A stretch of 64,000 nucleotides of DNA from Kiritimatiellia bacterium (GCA_017540905.1 JAFYAC010000084.1:1216-65215), one strand, 5' to 3'. Shown: positions 37,814-45,362, counted from the stretch's first letter. The notes: a model not told the origin generated them from the letters alone. A program made the numbers and translations.

Positions 37814-37831
37814 AAATGGTTATAACCATTT
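37814..37831. repeat. Perfect 18-bp palindrome AAATGGTTATAACCATTT at the left edge of the lower-G+C island
   Basis: Read directly from the sequence. Lies in an AT-rich stretch 65 nt downstream of the last small ORF of the island operon. Confidence 0.9.
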
Positions 37832-37895
37832 TTGGTGAAACAGAAAGATATATTGGAGAGACAAACAGGCAAAACAGGCATCTCTTCCGTCATCT

Positions 37896-38129
37896 TCATT
37901 CCCGTTCCTCCTCCCGCTCTCGTGCGTATTCCTCTTCCATCCCGTATCCTCCTTGCCCTTCCTCGACCTCGTCACCGCTCCCTGGTTTCCTCAGCTCCAG
38001 CTCCACCATCCGCAGCATTCCGCCGACATACACCTCGAACGTCCCCGAACCGCTCAGGGAGGCTGCGTCGGTGTTTCTCGGCTCGAGCAGCTCGAACACC
38101 ACCAGCGTCCTGCCATTCTCTTCCCGCAC
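37896..38129 (-). CDS. Small acidic-tailed hypothetical protein (77 aa)
   Basis: GTG start 3 nt after the stop of the upstream ORF. No family recognised; could be non-coding. Confidence 0.3.
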   Translation of the reverse strand: MREENGRTLVVFELLEPRNTDAASLSGSGTFEVYVGGMLRMVELELRKPGSGDEVEEGQGGYGMEEEYAREREEERE

Positions 38130-38132
38130 CCG

Positions 38133-38450
38133 TTACCCGCAAAACCCGCAAACCGACCTCGCCGCGATGGAGACCCGGTCCAGGCCCTGCGTGAAGGCAT
38201 CGAGCTGGCCGAAGGGAATCATGTCCCAATGGAGGTAGGCCGCCTTCAGGACCGTTTTCTCCGCCTTGTCCGCGGGCTTCGCGCAAGATTGCCAGCCCGC
38301 CAGGAGACGTTCCGTCCACCAGCGGTTGTGTTCGGCGTGCAGGAGTTTCAGGCGGGATTCCGCGTTTCTTGGGCAGTCGGGGAAGGCGGCGGCCTTCTCC
38401 TTGAAGCTGTCGCCCGCGTTGATGCTCGACCATTGGCCCCAGCGTGGCAT
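38133..38450 (-). CDS. Small protein with RyR-domain-like signature (or C-terminal remnant of a larger gene)
   Basis: LLHAEHNRWWTERLLAGWQ...KAAYLHWDMIPFGQLD resembles the RyR repeat pattern (H-x-x-W-x-x-E-R-x-x-x-G-W ... P-hD-EL). Weak RBS. Confidence 0.35.
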   Translation of the reverse strand: MPRWGQWSSINAGDSFKEKAAAFPDCPRNAESRLKLLHAEHNRWWTERLLAGWQSCAKPADKAEKTVLKAAYLHWDMIPFGQLDAFTQGLDRVSIAARSVCGFCG

Positions 38451-38588
38451 CTGTTTCCACAGCTGTTCCGTTCACTCCTTGCCCCAGACCCCCCGCGCCC
38501 CTTCCACGAACTTCCCAACCGCCGCCTCCGGGAGCCCTTTGCCGAAGGCAGATGATCCACCCGGCCGCCCGCCCTGCATCCAGGGATC

Positions 38589-39584
38589 TCAGAAAGCGCA
38601 GTCCTCCTGGTCCGCCTCATGTTGGGCAATCCACGCTTCGAGGGCTGCCCGGTTGCGTGCATACCAGTCGTTGCACAGGTGGTAGGAAACACCGCAAATG
38701 ACAAGCGGTTCAGCATAATAACGACGTTTGTCGAATGTTTCCCCGGCCTTCACCAGAAGGGGGAAATTCAATCCGAACGCCTCTTTGGAATACTCTGCGC
38801 TCATCAAATCCTCGACCTCGGAATCGTTTTCGAGCCCCTCGAGAATCGCCCTCACGACCGTTTTCACAAGGTTCCCAATCTTGGTGGCCTTGACATCGCT
38901 CTCCCCGGTTCCATTGGCATTCCCGGACTCCCCGGACCTGTTGCCGCCCTTCTGCGGCATGCCCGAGACAACCTCCAACTGCACGGCCCGCAAGAACAAT
39001 TCCGCCGTGTCGGAAACTTCTGCCACGAGCGGGAGCATCGGCTCCATGATTTCCCGCTGGAAATCCCTGTTGATCAAAAGGCGGAAATCGAACTCGAAGC
39101 CCTGTTGCCGGAAAAATCCGGCCACCATGTCGAAGGCCGGACGGAGAACCTCTTCGTACGAATGCGTGACCTTGGGTGCGGCAAAACAGATTGAGCCTTT
39201 CCTGACATCCATGTAGCAATGGAGTCCGATGGCCGCGCGGAACAATTTTCCGGCGATCTTCGCCGCGCTCTCGTGCTTGTTTTTTCCGTATTGGACCCCA
39301 TTCGTGTGAAAGGCGGATTCTACGGCATGCCATGACCAGTCCATTGCCAACAGCCCGACGACGTCGCACTCCGTCTGGTGGAGTATTTGCGTGGCATCGG
39401 CATTCTTTTTGAATATGTCCAATTGCCCGAAAAACTGTTTGCCTTCCTGTACCAGCCGTTCGATGTCGGCGAGGTTGTGCTCCACCCAGTTCGGAGACGG
39501 CTTCCAGTTCGTTTGCACCACCGTGCAACCTTTGACATGCTTCAGCCAGGAAGCGACCAATGATTCACACATTTCGATTTTCAT
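38589..39584 (-). CDS. Hypothetical protein (331 aa); possible N-terminal PD-(D/E)xK-like module and C-terminal RYY...W module
   Basis: ORF 38589..39599. Start set at the second ATG (39584), which has GGAGAG 7 nt upstream. MKIEMCESLVASWLKHVKGCTVVQTN...TECDVVGLL...AVESAFH; C-terminal KRRYYAEPLVICGVSYHLCNDWY. About 57% G+C. Confidence 0.6.
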   Translation of the reverse strand: MKIEMCESLVASWLKHVKGCTVVQTNWKPSPNWVEHNLADIERLVQEGKQFFGQLDIFKKNADATQILHQTECDVVGLLAMDWSWHAVESAFHTNGVQYGKNKHESAAKIAGKLFRAAIGLHCYMDVRKGSICFAAPKVTHSYEEVLRPAFDMVAGFFRQQGFEFDFRLLINRDFQREIMEPMLPLVAEVSDTAELFLRAVQLEVVSGMPQKGGNRSGESGNANGTGESDVKATKIGNLVKTVVRAILEGLENDSEVEDLMSAEYSKEAFGLNFPLLVKAGETFDKRRYYAEPLVICGVSYHLCNDWYARNRAALEAWIAQHEADQEDCAF

Positions 39585-39696
39585 CTGCAATCTCTCCATT
39601 CTTTGCTTGCTATTTGCGATTGTAGTTCGGTATGGAAATTCGTCAATCGCGGTTCATGGGCAGTTTCCATGATTTTCCCATCCGCCCGGGTTCGTG

Positions 39697-40629
39697 TCAG
39701 TACCGCAGGATTTCCTTCAGCTTCCTGCACCCCTTGAAGTGCACCCCCCGGTCCACCTCCAGCCCCTGTGGAACCCGCACCGTTTCCAAGTCGTCGCAAC
39801 CGGCGAATGCGCCCGCCCCGACCTCCTCGACGGTGGAGGGAAGGGTGGCCGTCCGCACCCCCGTTCCGCGGAATGCACTTTCGCCGATGTACGCCAGACC
39901 CTCGGGCAACACGATTTCCCGGAGGGCCTTGCACTCATAGAACGCCCCGACCCCGATGGCCTTCACGCTCGCGGGAATGGCCATGGATTCCAAGGCCGCG
40001 CACAGCGCGAACGCCCGTTCCCTGATTTTCGTCGTGCCCTCGTGGATGACGACCTTCTTCAAGGTGGAACAGCCACGGAATGCCCACTCCCCGATTTCCA
40101 TCACGCTTTCAGGGATGGCTACCGACTTCAGGGAGGTACAATTGAGGAACGCACACCCCCCGATAGCCGTCACGCTCCCGGGAATGAGGACCGACTCCAA
40201 GGCGGTACAAGCGACAAACGCCGCGTACCCGATTCCCGTCACCCCCTTGGGAATGACAACCGATTTCAGGGATTCGCAACCCGCGAACGCATTCTCCCCG
40301 ATGGCCCTTGCGCTTTCGGGGATGACAACCGACTTCAGGGAGGTACAATTGAGGAAAGCCTCATCCCCGATTGCCTTCACGCTTCCGGGAATGTCGATCG
40401 CCTCCAAGGCCGCGCAATCCTTGAACGCCGCCCCCCCGATTTCCGTCACGCTGGCCGGGATGCGGATTGCACGGAGGCTGGTGCATCCCTCGAACGCCTG
40501 TTCTTCGATGGCCGTGGTCCCATCCTGGATTTCCACGCATTCGATGTCCGTCCGGTTCTGGTACGCCCTTGCCTTGATGGGGGCGCCGGCCTGGCCGATC
40601 TTGAGGGTTTTCTTCGTTTCGTTTGCCAT
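39697..40629 (-). CDS. BspA-type leucine-rich repeat protein (LRR_5), no signal peptide
   Basis: About 11 repeats of the form I-P-x-S-V-x-x-I-G-x-x-A-F-x-x-C-x-x-L. N-terminus MANETKKTLKIGQAG is hydrophilic. GGGAG RBS. Confidence 0.8.
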   Translation of the reverse strand: MANETKKTLKIGQAGAPIKARAYQNRTDIECVEIQDGTTAIEEQAFEGCTSLRAIRIPASVTEIGGAAFKDCAALEAIDIPGSVKAIGDEAFLNCTSLKSVVIPESARAIGENAFAGCESLKSVVIPKGVTGIGYAAFVACTALESVLIPGSVTAIGGCAFLNCTSLKSVAIPESVMEIGEWAFRGCSTLKKVVIHEGTTKIRERAFALCAALESMAIPASVKAIGVGAFYECKALREIVLPEGLAYIGESAFRGTGVRTATLPSTVEEVGAGAFAGCDDLETVRVPQGLEVDRGVHFKGCRKLKEILRY

Positions 40630-40677
40630 GTTCGATCTCCCGTTTGTTTGTATCCAAATGCGTGGTTTGCCGTCCGT

Positions 40678-41328
40678 TCACCCGAACGGGCGGCAGCAAA
40701 CCGCCTTCTGCCGCCACTCCGGGCGCGCCGGGCGCATGCCATGCTCCAGGCAACTGCGCATCTCCCCGCGCGCGTCTTCCCCGAAGACCACGACGTCGGG
40801 CTCCAGCTCCCACATGAGCATGTAAAACAGTTCGGGGCGCGCAAAGCCCCCGAACAAGTCCTCGTAATCCCCGCCCAGCCTCCCCTTCAACACCTCCCAG
40901 GCCGGATCCGTGGACAACCCCGAAAACGCGTTCACGTGGATGGCCACGTTCGTCCGCTGCCCGGCGCGGTAACTGGCGTCGAACGCCCGGAGCACCGGCT
41001 CCATGCCGTCGAACCACCCGGAAGGGTGCCGCCCGAAATACCCGTCGCACTGCTCCCGCAGGAACGCCGCCGCCCCGGTCTCCGGCAGTTCCCGGAGCGC
41101 GAACGGGGCATCCGGCCCGTCCGCGAATTCGAGCGGCGACGGATTCACCCCCACCGTGATGATCCGCCGGTTGCCCGCCTTTCCGTACGCCGCGCTGTCC
41201 CCGAACCACGGGATGGGGAACATCCCCCGCACGAACCGGCATTCCCGCCTCCCGTGGCGGCACGTCCGCTCCCTCTTTTCCCTGAAATCCTCGATGAAAG
41301 CATCGATCAATTTGTCGCTGACGGGCAT
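40678..41328 (-). CDS. Hypothetical protein (216 aa), possible uracil-DNA-glycosylase-superfamily fold
   Basis: ATG 41328 within ORF 40678..41628 (AAGGA RBS). RIITVGVNPSPLE and AIHVNAFSGLS loosely resemble Mug/TDG motifs GINPG and NPSGLS. Tentative. Confidence 0.55.
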   Translation of the reverse strand: MPVSDKLIDAFIEDFREKRERTCRHGRRECRFVRGMFPIPWFGDSAAYGKAGNRRIITVGVNPSPLEFADGPDAPFALRELPETGAAAFLREQCDGYFGRHPSGWFDGMEPVLRAFDASYRAGQRTNVAIHVNAFSGLSTDPAWEVLKGRLGGDYEDLFGGFARPELFYMLMWELEPDVVVFGEDARGEMRSCLEHGMRPARPEWRQKAVCCRPFG

Positions 41329-41453
41329 GTCCTTTTTCCCTTGTTTTCGTCCCCCCGCGGGGACAGGCGCGCTTGCTCCGGTTGCCGTTTGGGCGTCACA
41401 AGCAACGGCGCAGAAGCGGGCCTGCCGTTCCCCGGGGCGGGCTTGTGTCATTG

Positions 41454-41822
41454 CTACCGGCTTTCCAGATAGCTGGCAAGTTTCCTGAAGGCGGTCCGCC
41501 GGTCCAGCCATCTGTCTTTGTCCATCCCCTGCGCTGCCTGCAACCGGCCGTCGATGAAGATGACGCACAGACGATAGCCTTCCGCGTTTTCCTCCCCTGT
41601 ATAAGAGCACACGAACTCTTCGAACCATCCGGCCCCATGCTCGTTGTCGATTTGCTTCGCCAGTGCCCGGAGCCGTGATTTGTAATCGCTGACCACCTTC
41701 TTGCTCAGCCTGCGTTCGGCCGCTTCCATGGCGAACTCGCCGAATTCATCCAGCAGCAGATCGAAGTCTGATTTTTCTTTGGTTTCGCGCGTCCTGGAAG
41801 CCCTTGCAGTCGTTTTGTCCAT
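41454..41822 (-). CDS. Hypothetical protein (122 aa), first gene of the island operon
   Basis: ATG with AAAGGAG 7 nt upstream and a TGnTATAAT promoter. Charged helical N-terminus; no family recognised. Confidence 0.6.
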   Translation of the reverse strand: MDKTTARASRTRETKEKSDFDLLLDEFGEFAMEAAERRLSKKVVSDYKSRLRALAKQIDNEHGAGWFEEFVCSYTGEENAEGYRLCVIFIDGRLQAAQGMDKDRWLDRRTAFRKLASYLESR

Positions 41823-41848
41823 GTGGTTCTCCTTTTGGTTGCCCCCGT

Positions 41849-41857
41849 ATTATACCA
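41849..41857 (-). promoter_or_regulatory. Extended -10 promoter element (TGGTATAAT) for the island operon
   Basis: The minus strand reads ...ttgaggggttggTATAATacgggggcaaccaaaAGGAGaaccacATG. Confidence 0.6.
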
Positions 41858-42429
41858 ACCCCTCAAAAATTGCTCAGCCGACAACGGAAAAAAATCAGAT
41901 TTTTTTCTCGCTTTAGAGAAGATTGGCTTTAGGATTGTAAGAATACAAGTGATGATGCGTAGAAATGCGGAAAAATAAATGGCACAAAATGACATAAAGA
42001 GGGCTCTGCGTGATTGTTTTTTTTCGTGGGACCGCCTCTGGAAGTCCACGAATGCAAGAAACAAGGAGAGTAACAGGACACGCCCCCCTCCGTGAGGGGG
42101 GGGCGCGGCCATGGATGGGATGTTCATGCCTGGGAAAAGACAAGTGGCAGGGGCCGCGACGGGTGCGGGATGCCGTCGCGGCGAGCGCAACTCCACTCGG
42201 GCAACAAGCGAATCAAGCCCTTTGCGGATGGACCGTGCGGAAGCCTGCATCAACGGCCCCCCGCAGTACTCCCCCCGCCGCCCTCCGGGCGGCACCCCCC
42301 CCTCGGAGGGGGGCGATTGCTTGCGCACGCTCCATTCTCCGAATACCGCCCCGCAATCCCGGCACCATCATTCCCGTCCGCCAACACTGTTCAAGAAATA
42401 GTGTGGCGCATATTTTGCCCTCCAGACAG

Positions 42430-42454
42430 GTAGGGCGAGCTCTCCGAGCGAGCC
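42430..42454 (+). repeat. REP-like variant (GTAGGGCGAGCTCTCCGAGCGAGCC)
   Basis: GTAG head plus hairpin. An inverted relative lies at 43286..43310. Confidence 0.7.
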
Positions 42455-42527
42455 GTTTCTTTCGTTGCGAACCCTGTTCAAGACGATGCGCGGGGACCGG
42501 AAACCTTCCACCCGCGTCGTGCTCCCT

Positions 42528-42928: not shown

Positions 42929-43394
42929 CCCAGCCTTTCGTTTTCACTAACTGCTGGGAAAGCGATTTTTCCGGCATCCTGCCCTTCCGCCATGGCGATT
43001 GCATTTGGCCCCACGCGGGAGGGCCGTGCTCCGCCACGGCCGGTGTCACAAGTGCGAGTGACAAGTGGGCGGAGCGCCCTGCGGGCAGTCTTTTTCTTCC
43101 CGCCCGTGCTTTCCTGCCCGAGGGGCACACCGCACTTCGTCCTTCATCCTTCCGCGCGCCCGCTTTCCCGAGCAGATCAACCCGCCATCACCATCCTCCC
43201 GTTTCTTCATGCATGGCGTCCATGCTCTCGGCACGTTTCCCGACCTCAGAATCTGACACCCTGCAAACTCCTCCCTCGTACACGCGGCTCGCTCGGAGAG
43301 CTCGCCCCACCGCCAGCAGGGCGTACCGCAAACGTGTCTCTCGCAACTGCGCGCCCTAGTCATCGTAAAGGCCATTCTTTCGCATGTTTTCGGG

Positions 43395-43497: not shown

Positions 43498-43923
43498 CCG
43501 CGGCCGACAAATACGAATGTTTTGACTTTACGCCGTACCAGGGCGCACAAGGCTGGTTTCAACTGGGCAAAACCACGCCGCAGCCGTGGATTTGCCCACT
43601 TTTGTCTTGTGCGTTTGCCAGGAGGGCGCCTTCACTGGCGGCCTGCCGACCCCCTCCGACGTCCGGGCGTTTTCCAAGGCGGCCGGGCTCGGCCTGCCCA
43701 TCGGCCGCGACGCCGTCCTCTGTCTCGCGGAACGCGCCCTGCCCCTGGCACGGAATGTCTCCATCCTGCCCATCGGGGCACTTTGAAAACAAGCCGCCCC
43801 CCCCCGGCAGTCAACCTGCAACAAAGAACCTGGCCGTCCCCCCGCAAACTCCTCACTCGTCCCTTTGCCGGAGCGCGGGCGGCCCACCCGCTTCCCCCTT
43901 CACCTATCCGCCCGCAGGGCGCG

Positions 43924-44020
43924 CCGCAAACTCGTCACTCGTCACTTGTCACTCGCATCTGCGCGCCCTCAGGGCGCGCCACCGCATCTTGTCACTTGTC
44001 ACTGTTCACTTTTCACTTCG
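43924..44020. repeat. Heptamer (TCGTCAC/TTGTCAC) tracts around the hairpin GCGCGCCCTCAGGGCGCGCC
   Basis: ccgcaaactcgtcactcgtcacttgtcactcg ... accgcatcttgtcacttgtcactgttcacttttcacttcg. The right part encodes the last codons of doc. Confidence 0.8.
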
Positions 44021-44407
44021 TGGCGCTCCCCGGGCGCAGCGCTCCCGGATCCACCCGAGTAGCCCCTCGTACCCCATCGACCCGTCGGCGAGGGCGAGCC
44101 CGGCGCGCACGATGTCGTCGTCGCTGCAGTCGAGGCGCACCCCGTTCGTTTCGAGGAACGTCAGCACCACGTACATGCCGATGCGCTTGTTGCCGTCGAG
44201 AAAAGCGTGGTTGGCGACGAGCGACGCCCCGAGCCGGGCCGCTTTTTCCTCCTTGGACGGGTACAGCTCCCGGCCGTCGAACGTGGCGAACGCCGCTTCC
44301 AGGGCCGATTCCAGCAGCGCCTCGTCGCGCACGCCCACCGCGCCGCCAGTCTCCGCCGCGATGTACTGGTGGAGCAACAGCACCTTGTCCTTCGAGAACT
44401 TGATCAT
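44006..44407 (-). CDS. doc: Doc (death-on-curing) Fic-domain toxin
   Basis: HAFLDGNKRIG (Fic motif HxFx[DE]GNxR). ATGA overlap with phd. Confidence 0.9.
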   Translation of the reverse strand: MIKFSKDKVLLLHQYIAAETGGAVGVRDEALLESALEAAFATFDGRELYPSKEEKAARLGASLVANHAFLDGNKRIGMYVVLTFLETNGVRLDCSDDDIVRAGLALADGSMGYEGLLGWIRERCARGAPRSEK

Positions 44408-44646
44408 TTCGCCAATTCCAGGAAAGCGCCCTTGTGGCGCCTCATCACGCGGCGAGCGACGACCTCGATCCGCTCGTCCTCCGACAGGTCGAGGTAATCC
44501 TCCCCATCCAGATCGACGACGAGATACTTCGGGCGGTTCCGCTTGAAAATCACCGTCCGCCCGTCCCTGTCGGTCTGCCTGGCGACGGCCGAAAAATTCC
44601 GGTTCGCCTCCGACAACGAAACAATCTTGCTGCTATCCACGATCAT
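44404..44646 (-). CDS. phd: Phd/YefM-family antitoxin
   Basis: 80 aa (MIVDSSKIVSLSEANRNFSAVARQ...GRTVIFKRNRPKYLVV), sitting immediately upstream of doc and overlapping it. Confidence 0.8.
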   Translation of the reverse strand: MIVDSSKIVSLSEANRNFSAVARQTDRDGRTVIFKRNRPKYLVVDLDGEDYLDLSEDERIEVVARRVMRRHKGAFLELAK

Positions 44647-44797
44647 GAAACGACCTCTACCTTGCCTTTCCGTCCCCCAATCTAGGATGTTTTCATCCTA
44701 CCGTCAACCCCGCCCTCCGCCCGCTTCCCTTTTCACACTCCGCCCGCAGAACGCACAGCCTTGAAAAGTTGAAAGGTTGAGGGAATCCGTTGAAGCG

Positions 44798-45128
44798 TCA
44801 TCCTTTGCGCCCGCAGGGCGTACCACCTTGAAGGGTTGAAAGGGTGAAGAGTTGAAAAGCGGCCACCACGCCGACCAGCGACGGATACGCCTCCGCCGAA
44901 AACTCCGTCTGGAGCGCCCCGATTTTCGCGGCAACGGTCCCCGGCACGATCCCGAGCCCGTCCGTCAGCAGCTTCGCGAGCGCCGAAATCCCCATGCCCG
45001 CGAAGATCCCCCTCGACCCGCCCTCGCCCGCCCCGTCCTCGGCCGCCAGCAGCACCTCCGCGCAGGCCGTGCCTTCCGGGTACGGCAGGATACGGTTTGA
45101 ACGCCTCGCCCTTGACCTTGCCGCCCAT
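44798..45128 (-). pseudogene. Frameshifted fragment of a membrane transporter gene (OPT oligopeptide-transporter-like)
   Basis: ATG 45128 with AAGGAG RBS gives MGGKVKGEAFKPYP. The sensible sequence then continues in another frame: ILPYPEGTACAEVLLAAEDG...GIFAGMGISALAKLLTDGLGIVPG. It ends in low-complexity TTGAAAGG repeats. Only about 110 codons long. Confidence 0.35.
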
Positions 45129-45261: not shown

Positions 45262-45362
45262 TTTTCCAATGATTGGAAAATATTTTTCCAATGGTTGGAA
45301 AAATCAGGCCATTTTTCCAATGATTGGAAATTTTTCGTCCATTTTCCAATGATTGGAAAAAA
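45262..45362. repeat. Array of 4 palindromes TTTTCCAATG(A/G)TTGGAAAA (centre spacing about 22.5, 28.5 and 29 bp)
   Basis: Read directly from the sequence. Lies 150-250 bp upstream of the secreted LRR gene. It generates the FSNDWK/FPMIGK peptides seen in several track ORFs. Confidence 0.9.

Follow-up and report, generated by a model that had tools for sequence, protein, structure and literature searches.

A probable mosaic island of independent accessory genes, one of them encoding an LRR_5 protein without signal peptide, in a Kiritimatiellae gut bacterium

Several described groups of proteins and loci come close to parts of the region considered here. Leucine-rich repeat (LRR) proteins of the BspA type, which carry the Pfam domain LRR_5, include BspA of Tannerella forsythia, HupY/LrrG of streptococci and the BspA-like proteins of Trichomonas. 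Restriction enzymes that pair a reader with a nuclease include the SRA-HNH, MspJI-like and GmrSD enzymes. The uracil-DNA glycosylase (UDG) superfamily, with Mug/TDG, SMUG1 and the family 4/5 UDGs among its members, and the defence or variable islands of bacterial genomes are the other described systems relevant to this comparison. We report here on a run of six minus-strand open reading frames (ORFs) between positions 37,814 and 41,880 of a stretch of 64,000 nucleotides from a Kiritimatiellia bacterium (GCA_017540905.1, JAFYAC010000084.1:1216-65215), referred to below as the window and numbered from its first letter. From 41822 down to 37896, the ORFs encode proteins of 122, 216, 310, 331, 105 and 77 amino acids (aa); they are listed with other features of the region in Table 1. 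The initial annotation of this DNA had regarded them as a self-promoted operon of lower G+C content and as a candidate defence module built around the 310-aa LRR protein.

In this Kiritimatiellae gut bacterium, the region is better read as a mosaic of independent accessory genes, a variable island of recent rearrangement, than as a conserved multi-gene system. We give this reading a probability of about 0.6. The genes would have separate histories and would share their orientation behind a strong promoter by chance. In order, the island would consist of a truncated 122-aa ORF, a short member of the 216-aa family without its partner, an LRR_5 gene placed at a synteny breakpoint, a 331-aa gene that stands by itself behind a promoter-like site of its own, and two small ORFs without detected relatives. 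Evidence comes from the loci in which homologues of the 331-aa and 216-aa proteins are found. In 106 loci of the 331-aa family (±8 kb), no relative of the 216-, 122-, 105- or 77-aa proteins was present, and a single LRR protein was found about 3 kb away from the 331-family gene in a Clostridiales genome. In 88 loci of 216-family relatives, no LRR match was obtained; the sole link to the 331-aa family was an HNH protein in locus L196 that shares the C-terminal module only. The 105- and 77-aa proteins had no relative in any locus of either set. The proposal of one module around an intracellular LRR sensor is not supported by these results, since its genes are co-localised neither in the 106 and 88 homologue loci nor in L205, a close relative; the initial annotation had itself named such a lack of co-localisation as refuting the proposal.

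The 216-aa gene of locus L205 (GCA_016295045.1) matches that of the window at 93% DNA identity over 721 nt, and the two products are 90% identical. The DNA homology stops at 40670, 8 bp past the stop codon of the 216-aa gene and inside the 48-bp spacer. The gene downstream in L205 is unrelated to the LRR gene, and the genes flanking the 216-aa gene differ on both sides. The simplest reading of this alignment is that the LRR gene came to adjoin the 216-aa gene recently. Upstream, L205 carries an ORF of at least 322 aa that runs off the contig end. The first 65 on-contig residues of this ORF correspond to residues 58-122 of the 122-aa protein (54% identity). Because the L205 homologue extends about 255 residues beyond this match, and because about 700 bp of L205 are missing from the window between 41419 and 41390, the 122-aa gene appears to be a truncated remnant. 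This gene, the owner of the strong promoter, is thus most likely the front end of a longer one. Its product has no match in Pfam, PADLOC, NCBIfam, PHROGs or the PDB and no relative was found for it in plasmids; for the L205 upstream protein, no relative was found in plasmids or phages. Some gene callers start the 216-aa ORF further upstream, at an ATG that follows the 122-aa stop codon by 2 nt (TAGcaATG), and so obtain 257 aa (41328-41451). The 41 residues gained are of low complexity and fall at the deletion scar seen against L205. The L205 gene downstream of the 216-aa gene (1784-2005) begins with MKEDAVSKPKMKDIRIFVASSKELERERNEL, a start that may resemble the TIR-like DUF4062 motif at the N-terminus of STAND-type conflict proteins.

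The 216-aa family has a frequent neighbour of its own. In four genomes of different lineages, a 216-family gene is directly followed by a 251-288-aa gene of a second family (L116:6001-7595, L117:6001-7708, L118:6001-7633 and L119:6001-7615), whose proteins share the motifs WGEWEP, NTDPFVFG, LDTVxV, RLYxGAT and GFARP. This partner of about 285 aa lies at -9 to +5 nt, translationally coupled to the 216-family gene, in 38 of the 76 216-family loci with room downstream (loci among L115-L202), and the pair is found in Cyanobacteria and a Thermomicrobiales metagenome-assembled genome (MAG), among others. Neither gene of the pair has a Pfam match. The remaining loci are solitary, without a recurring downstream gene, and the partner family is absent from the window. 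A scheme in which the 216-aa family is always accompanied by a variable downstream "effector", with the LRR gene in that slot here, was considered and rejected, since no other partner is found repeatedly and half of the family stands alone.

The 331-aa family has no conserved neighbours. Among 54 lineages (<70% identity), the 105 immediate neighbours span 107 Pfam families, and the commonest of these, HTH_3, accounts for only 6 of the 105. On a Priestia plasmid, a relative lies within a Sau3AI/Dcm/MutH-like/SNF2 cluster. In GCA_963660225.1, two paralogues of the N-terminal domain (L012:356-1342, which has a different C-terminus, and L012:7001-8005) flank two GmrSD_N genes. Other relatives have been found with toxin-antitoxin genes and a transposase gene, with a NUDIX gene that overlaps the start and an AAA+ ATPase gene two genes further upstream, and in serine-recombinase-rich elements. 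A methylase-linked type II system has been rejected as the rule for this family: a C5-methylase occurs within 4 kb in 7 of the 106 loci and as an immediate neighbour in one of the 54 lineages.

The six ORFs described in the initial annotation are all present and intact, and gene callers have predicted the same genes on essentially identical metagenome contigs, where the 77-aa ORF is called as 68 aa. A 98%-identical protein, P0121, bears the name of a Kiritimatiellae bacterium, which places the source organism among gut or rumen metagenomes. They are arranged head to tail in one orientation without overlaps, with intergenic gaps of 3-138 bp, and no terminator-like site was found in any gap of the run. 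The run has its own promoter and strong ribosome-binding site, as had been proposed; the extended -10 element TGGTATAAT is the sole match to TGNTATAAT in the window, with 0.02 expected from shuffles. A single transcript is not evident, because the genes are separated by gaps without overlaps and a second promoter-like site stands ahead of the 331-aa gene. With a G+C content of 0.60 versus 0.663 for the window, the region is lower in G+C than any other 4-kb stretch of the window. The lower G+C reported earlier therefore holds, but the figures were overstated (55-57% against 70%, where 60% against 66% is found). G+C is also uneven by gene, at 0.551 in the 331-aa gene and 0.676 in the 216-aa gene. 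The G+C content at third codon positions (GC3) is 0.705 in the 331-aa gene, 0.707 in the 122-aa gene, 0.79 in the LRR gene and 0.885 in the 216-aa gene, and 0.90-0.94 in valS and mrp. These differences from gene to gene are consistent with separate acquisitions.

Several points weigh against the mosaic reading as set out here. No fold search was significant for either enzyme candidate, the 216-aa or the 331-aa protein, and a search of PADLOC-DB 2.0 gave no family match for any of the six proteins at E ≤ 1. In the 331-aa family, an invariant alanine, A91, stands where the (D/E)xK motif would have its canonical lysine. Many 331-family surroundings are of a housekeeping type; in Campylobacter concisus and related Campylobacter MAGs (L020, L022, L026, L028, L047, L067, L069, L073 and L074), the gene occupies a fixed site between eamA/der and a DAHP-synthase-family gene. 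The apparent truncation of the 122-aa gene is deduced from a single relative, L205. Since the ORFs are intact, co-oriented and closely spaced and the gaps hold no terminator-like site, the genes may be transcribed together from the promoter at 41849 and may be coupled in function to some degree. Finally, the gene arrangement is identical on all retrieved contigs of this species, which carries little weight because these contigs are at least 99.9% identical.

The 331-aa protein is the likeliest defence-type piece of the island. Its family comprises at least 148 clusters at 90% identity and at least 293 confirmed matches among the species genomes scanned. The hosts include Bacillota, Campylobacter concisus, Bacteroidota, Akkermansia, Lentisphaeria, Planctomycetia, Melainabacteria, Paenibacillus and others, and 20 viral or prophage contigs of IMG/VR also carry a relative. 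The protein of the window is full length and aligns with its relatives from end to end. In the family alignment (A1), the N-terminal ~205 residues are strongly conserved, with the motifs MKIEMGES, NWK, QxECDxxG, (D/E)xAFH, K113 and DTSELFLR, and are followed by a low-complexity linker and a C-terminal module, RYY..P....G..Y..C..W. The conserved residues are E7, E72, D74, D/E89, H93 and K113, with E7, D74 and D/E89 kept across 74 sequences.

The initial annotation had suggested a PD-(D/E)xK nuclease core in the N-terminal part. The AlphaFold2 model (predicted local distance difference test, pLDDT, 90) gives this domain the order alpha-beta-beta-beta-alpha-beta (H3-17, E22-27, E73-79, E84-90, H103-125 and E129-136), an order read from the succession of secondary-structure elements and not from a superposition. 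E7, D74 and D/E89 sit where PD-(D/E)xK enzymes bear acidic residues, with D74 opening strand 2 and D/E89 inside strand 3. Invariant K113, in the next helix, or nearly invariant K28 could substitute for the motif lysine. In Foldseek searches of the PDB, the best match of the model was below threshold (E 0.069), and restriction-endonuclease-type folds followed at E 0.13-1. Seven of the top 50 sub-threshold matches were of this type (MunI, Ecl18kI, XPF, Zip2-Spo16, the Avs4 nuclease domain, Nt.BspD6I and FAN1). One relative matches the Pfam EC042_2821 restriction-endonuclease-like domain (E 0.0011), and sequence searches of the PDB with the single protein and with the family profile gave nothing. 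The suggestion of a nuclease core thus stands as to the order of the fold and the conserved E7, D74, D/E89 and K113; it does not stand as to the motif lysine, nor has it gained a significant fold match.

The C-terminal RYY..W module, which had also been pointed out, has proved to be conserved in the family and separable from the N-terminal domain. In L196, a 284-aa protein (L196:2589-3443) carries the module at its N-terminus and an HNH endonuclease in its C-terminal half (BLASTP 3e-12, module profile 9.6e-20, Pfam HNH 1.3e-8); its gene lies directly after a 216-family gene and the ~285-aa partner of the latter. A 312-aa protein encoded on a Hymenobacter plasmid likewise has the module at its end, and WYL-domain and DUF1998-domain genes lie a few genes away. 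The Pfam domain RYYR-CCHC gave a single weak match, in one 331-family relative, and a literature search on the name "RYYR-CCHC" found nothing. The best argument that the 331-aa family acts on nucleic acid is that the RYY..W module is common to two unrelated nuclease folds. From these features we infer that the 331-aa protein acts alone as a nuclease. The RYY..W module would recognise a nucleic-acid feature, and cleavage would fall to the N-terminal restriction-endonuclease-like domain, through E7, D74, D/E89 and K113, a lysine displaced to the next helix. Any part in defence is likewise inferred, whereas the gene content, the family sizes, the lack of conserved neighbours, the breakpoints and the module shared with HNH are observed.

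The 216-aa protein belongs to a large family, with 560 relatives at E ≤ 1e-3 by exhaustive search and 333 at E ≤ 1e-5 by profile search; a word-indexed search yielded only three. Conserved motifs of the family are WFGD..Y..S..R[IV]VTVG[LV]NPS..EF, Y[FY]...PY..WF and ALH.D..SP.AT.P.W. The protein of the window retains every invariant residue, and short forms of 215-227 aa occur elsewhere. Its segments had been said to recall UDG-superfamily motifs of the Mug/TDG type. The AlphaFold2 model is confident (pLDDT 88, predicted template-modelling score 0.87), and UDGs stand near the top in searches with it against two structure libraries, SMUG1 (E 0.15, TM 0.38) and TDG (E 0.18) in the PDB and phage UDGs (E 0.13-1.2) in BFVD, in all cases below threshold. 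Macro-domain proteins score like UDGs in these structure searches. The Pfam UDG domain (PF03167) matches 5 of 80 relatives weakly (best E 0.0028), and the window protein itself has no match to it at E ≤ 1. An hhalign comparison of the family with E. coli Mug, the sequence of which was checked against 1MUG, gave a probability of 2%, and sequence searches of the PDB with the single protein and the family profile gave nothing. In P0349, a 374-aa metagenome protein, a nucleoside 2-deoxyribosyltransferase domain (PF05014, E 1.5e-14) precedes the 216-family domain, a fusion that points tentatively to N-glycosidic bonds or nucleotides as what the family acts on. A UDG-like alpha/beta fold is possible and is the leading lead for the 216-aa protein. 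The earlier guess is therefore kept as the best lead, no comparison having reached significance.

A wider interpretation of these two families is possible, and we hold it tentatively, at well under even odds. According to it, the 331-aa family would be a widespread group of undescribed single-gene defence nucleases, present in many phyla (including Bacillota, Campylobacterota, Bacteroidota, Verrucomicrobiota and Cyanobacteria-related lineages) and on plasmids and prophages, with a relocated lysine and with RYY..W as a new reader domain shared with HNH nucleases. Separately, the 216-aa family and its tightly coupled ~285-aa partner would form a two-gene system, so far undescribed, for the processing of bases or nucleotides.

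The region could also be the decaying remnant of a mobile element in which most genes have lost their function and the promoter is a leftover, a view that fits the apparent 3' truncation of the 122-aa gene with ~700 bp missing, the absence of the usual 216-family partner, the 105- and 77-aa ORFs without relatives, and the adjacent stretch at 42.9-44.0 kb, which is gene-poor and full of short inverted repeats. It also fits the finding of no tRNA gene in the window and of no integrase near the region; the tRNA and Rfam scans of the window were empty, so they gave no evidence of an integration site, and no flanking direct repeats stood out. Nevertheless, we regard decay as unlikely. The 216-aa protein keeps all its invariant residues at a length that is also found elsewhere, the 331-aa protein is of full length along its whole alignment, the LRR repeat array is uninterrupted, and no frameshift was present in any retrieved contig.

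The 310-aa protein is the only one of the six that matched in the Pfam, PADLOC, NCBIfam and PHROGs scans. It matches LRR_5 (PF13306) in three stretches (301 bits, where the cut-off is 27.7; E 7.7e-91), and its gene is an uninterrupted tandem array with a repeat period of 69 nt (23 aa). Direct reading of its termini showed an N-terminus (MANETKKTLKIGQAGAPIKARAYQ) without a hydrophobic segment and no recognisable signal peptide, lipobox or C-terminal sorting signal. The second LRR_5 protein, encoded 5 kb away at 45513, has a hydrophobic N-terminal segment as a signal peptide. The difference in signal peptide that the initial annotation drew between the two LRR_5 proteins is borne out by this reading. 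Four copies of the palindrome-containing TTTTCCAATGATTGGAAAA, spaced by 22-29 nt, lie at 45262-45370, about 150 bp upstream of the gene at 45513, and this array looks like an operator.

The 310-aa protein might still be a surface or secreted protein of host interaction that is exported by a non-classical route, its position among genes for DNA-enzyme-like proteins being incidental. Its best matches beside LRR_5 are indeed to adhesin and surface models, below the cut-offs (HupY/LrrG 2e-32, Gli349 2e-21), the neighbouring LRR_5 protein does have a signal peptide, and the LRR gene stands at a synteny breakpoint. The termini show none of the signals looked for, however, and of the adjacent genes that were examined none was noted as part of a secretion system, so that we consider export of this protein improbable. 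Such export is compatible with the mosaic island and differs from it on the LRR protein only.

Least probable, and close to refuted, is a single self-promoted defence operon in which detection of an invader by a cytoplasmic LRR_5 protein would switch on the glycosylase-like and nuclease-like enzymes. In its favour, the run is intact and of one orientation, with a strong ribosome-binding site and an extended -10 promoter found nowhere else in the window ahead of it, the LRR protein has no signal peptide, both enzyme-like folds are plausible and the island context includes phd-doc. Against it, co-localisation is not kept in the 106 and 88 homologue loci, the 93%-identical relative has no LRR gene beside its 216-aa gene, the 216-aa family has a different habitual partner, the 331-aa gene has a promoter-like site of its own, GC3 is heterogeneous among the genes and no PADLOC model matches.

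Table 1. Features of the island and their coordinates in the window
Feature	Coordinates	Strand	Description
122-aa ORF	41454..41822	minus	Matches no family; most likely the 5' part left from a longer gene
216-aa ORF	40678..41328	minus	Short member of a large unannotated family of ~250 aa
310-aa ORF	39697..40629	minus	BspA-type LRR_5, without N-terminal signal peptide
331-aa ORF	38589..39584	minus	Restriction-endonuclease-like N-terminal domain (~1-205) and C-terminal RYY..W module (~229-325)
105-aa ORF	38133..38450	minus	No family match
77-aa ORF	37896..38129	minus	GTG start, acidic tail; may not be a real gene
Extended -10 element TGGTATAAT	41849..41857	minus	Upstream of the 122-aa ORF; read from the sequence
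Shine-Dalgarno AAGGAG	41829..41834	minus	6 nt ahead of the ATG at 41822; read from the sequence
Promoter-like TTGACG-16-TACAAT	39619..39646	minus	Just upstream of the 331-aa gene; 10/12 consensus matches, consensus match only
Synteny breakpoint	40630..40677		In the 48 bp that separate the 216-aa and LRR genes

For the 105-aa ORF, the initial annotation had noted a signature like that of RyR repeats, which finds no support: no RyR match was obtained in Pfam at E ≤ 1, and the sole sequence match in the PDB was to an unrelated protein (E 1.1). In plasmids, this ORF gave one marginal match, to an unannotated Sinorhizobium replicon (E 5e-3).

Of the neighbouring genes, Pfam confirmed phd, doc and a gene with sigma-70 region 4 only; the phd-doc pair (Fic/DOC E 7.4e-15; PhdYeFM E 9.2e-7 and 29.0 bits, just under the cut-off of 29.8 bits) lies at 44404-44646 and 44006-44407 with an overlap of 4 nt. 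An accessory-island setting of lower G+C beside a toxin-antitoxin pair, as proposed at the outset, is confirmed in both respects. The crcB gene (47155-47583) is intact. In the gene-poor stretch between the sigma region-4 gene and doc, there are two inverted-repeat pairs, one of 27 nt with 96% complementarity (42429-42455 and 43285-43311) and the other of 32 nt with 88% complementarity (43055-43086 and 43910-43941). Both bracket about 825 nt, and short related repeats occur at 44739-44827 and 46906-46934. Small mobile elements may have left these pairs behind. The spacer upstream of the 41849 promoter contains G/C-run palindromes at 42081-42104 and 42292-42315 (CGCCCCCCTCCGTGAGGGGGGGGC and its partner) beside an A+T-rich stretch, with a G+C content of 0.50-0.52 around 41500-42250.

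An intracellular LRR sensor wired to DNA-acting enzymes would, if true, be a new bacterial immune architecture. Because the evidence argues against an LRR-centred module, the locus is not worth pursuing as a system. It does illustrate how fast islands are reshuffled, both flanks of the 216-aa gene being different in a relative whose DNA is 93% identical over the gene. The 331-aa and 216-aa families are of more general interest, as they are sizeable, have confident predicted structures, lack coverage in Pfam, PADLOC and NCBIfam, and occur in contexts of the conflict-system type. The presence of the 331-aa family in culturable hosts (Campylobacter concisus, Paenibacillus and Priestia plasmids) makes it an inexpensive candidate for phage challenge.

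Compared with described systems, the region resembles defence and variable islands in its lower G+C, its toxin-antitoxin neighbour, the rapid gene turnover between close relatives and the relatives of its genes among restriction systems, and differs from them in that no gene matches a system described in PADLOC and that no integrase or tRNA gene was found. The 310-aa protein shares with the BspA-type proteins a strong LRR_5 match and 23-residue repeats, but consists of the repeat array alone, without signal peptide or anchor. As to the UDG superfamily, the 216-aa family has a strand with an invariant NPS loop (VG[LV]NPSxxEF), similar to GINPG in Mug, and another conserved strand and loop (ALHxDxxSPxAT). 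It is unlike this superfamily in the Foldseek values of its model (E ≥ 0.13, TM 0.3-0.4), in the failure of the window protein to match the Pfam UDG domain, and in that half of the family is coupled to the ~285-aa partner; no such partner is known for UDGs. The 331-aa protein differs from type IV and other modification-dependent enzymes in having no significant match to a described enzyme or Pfam domain and an invariant alanine in place of the canonical (D/E)xK lysine. It is like them in that the family is patchy across phyla, is found in restriction-modification or defence clusters and on mobile elements, and is encoded in most loci by a solitary gene without an adjacent methylase. In pairing a restriction-endonuclease-like domain with a small separable module, the 331-aa protein resembles the single-chain reader-plus-nuclease restriction enzymes, such as the SRA-HNH, MspJI-like and GmrSD enzymes.

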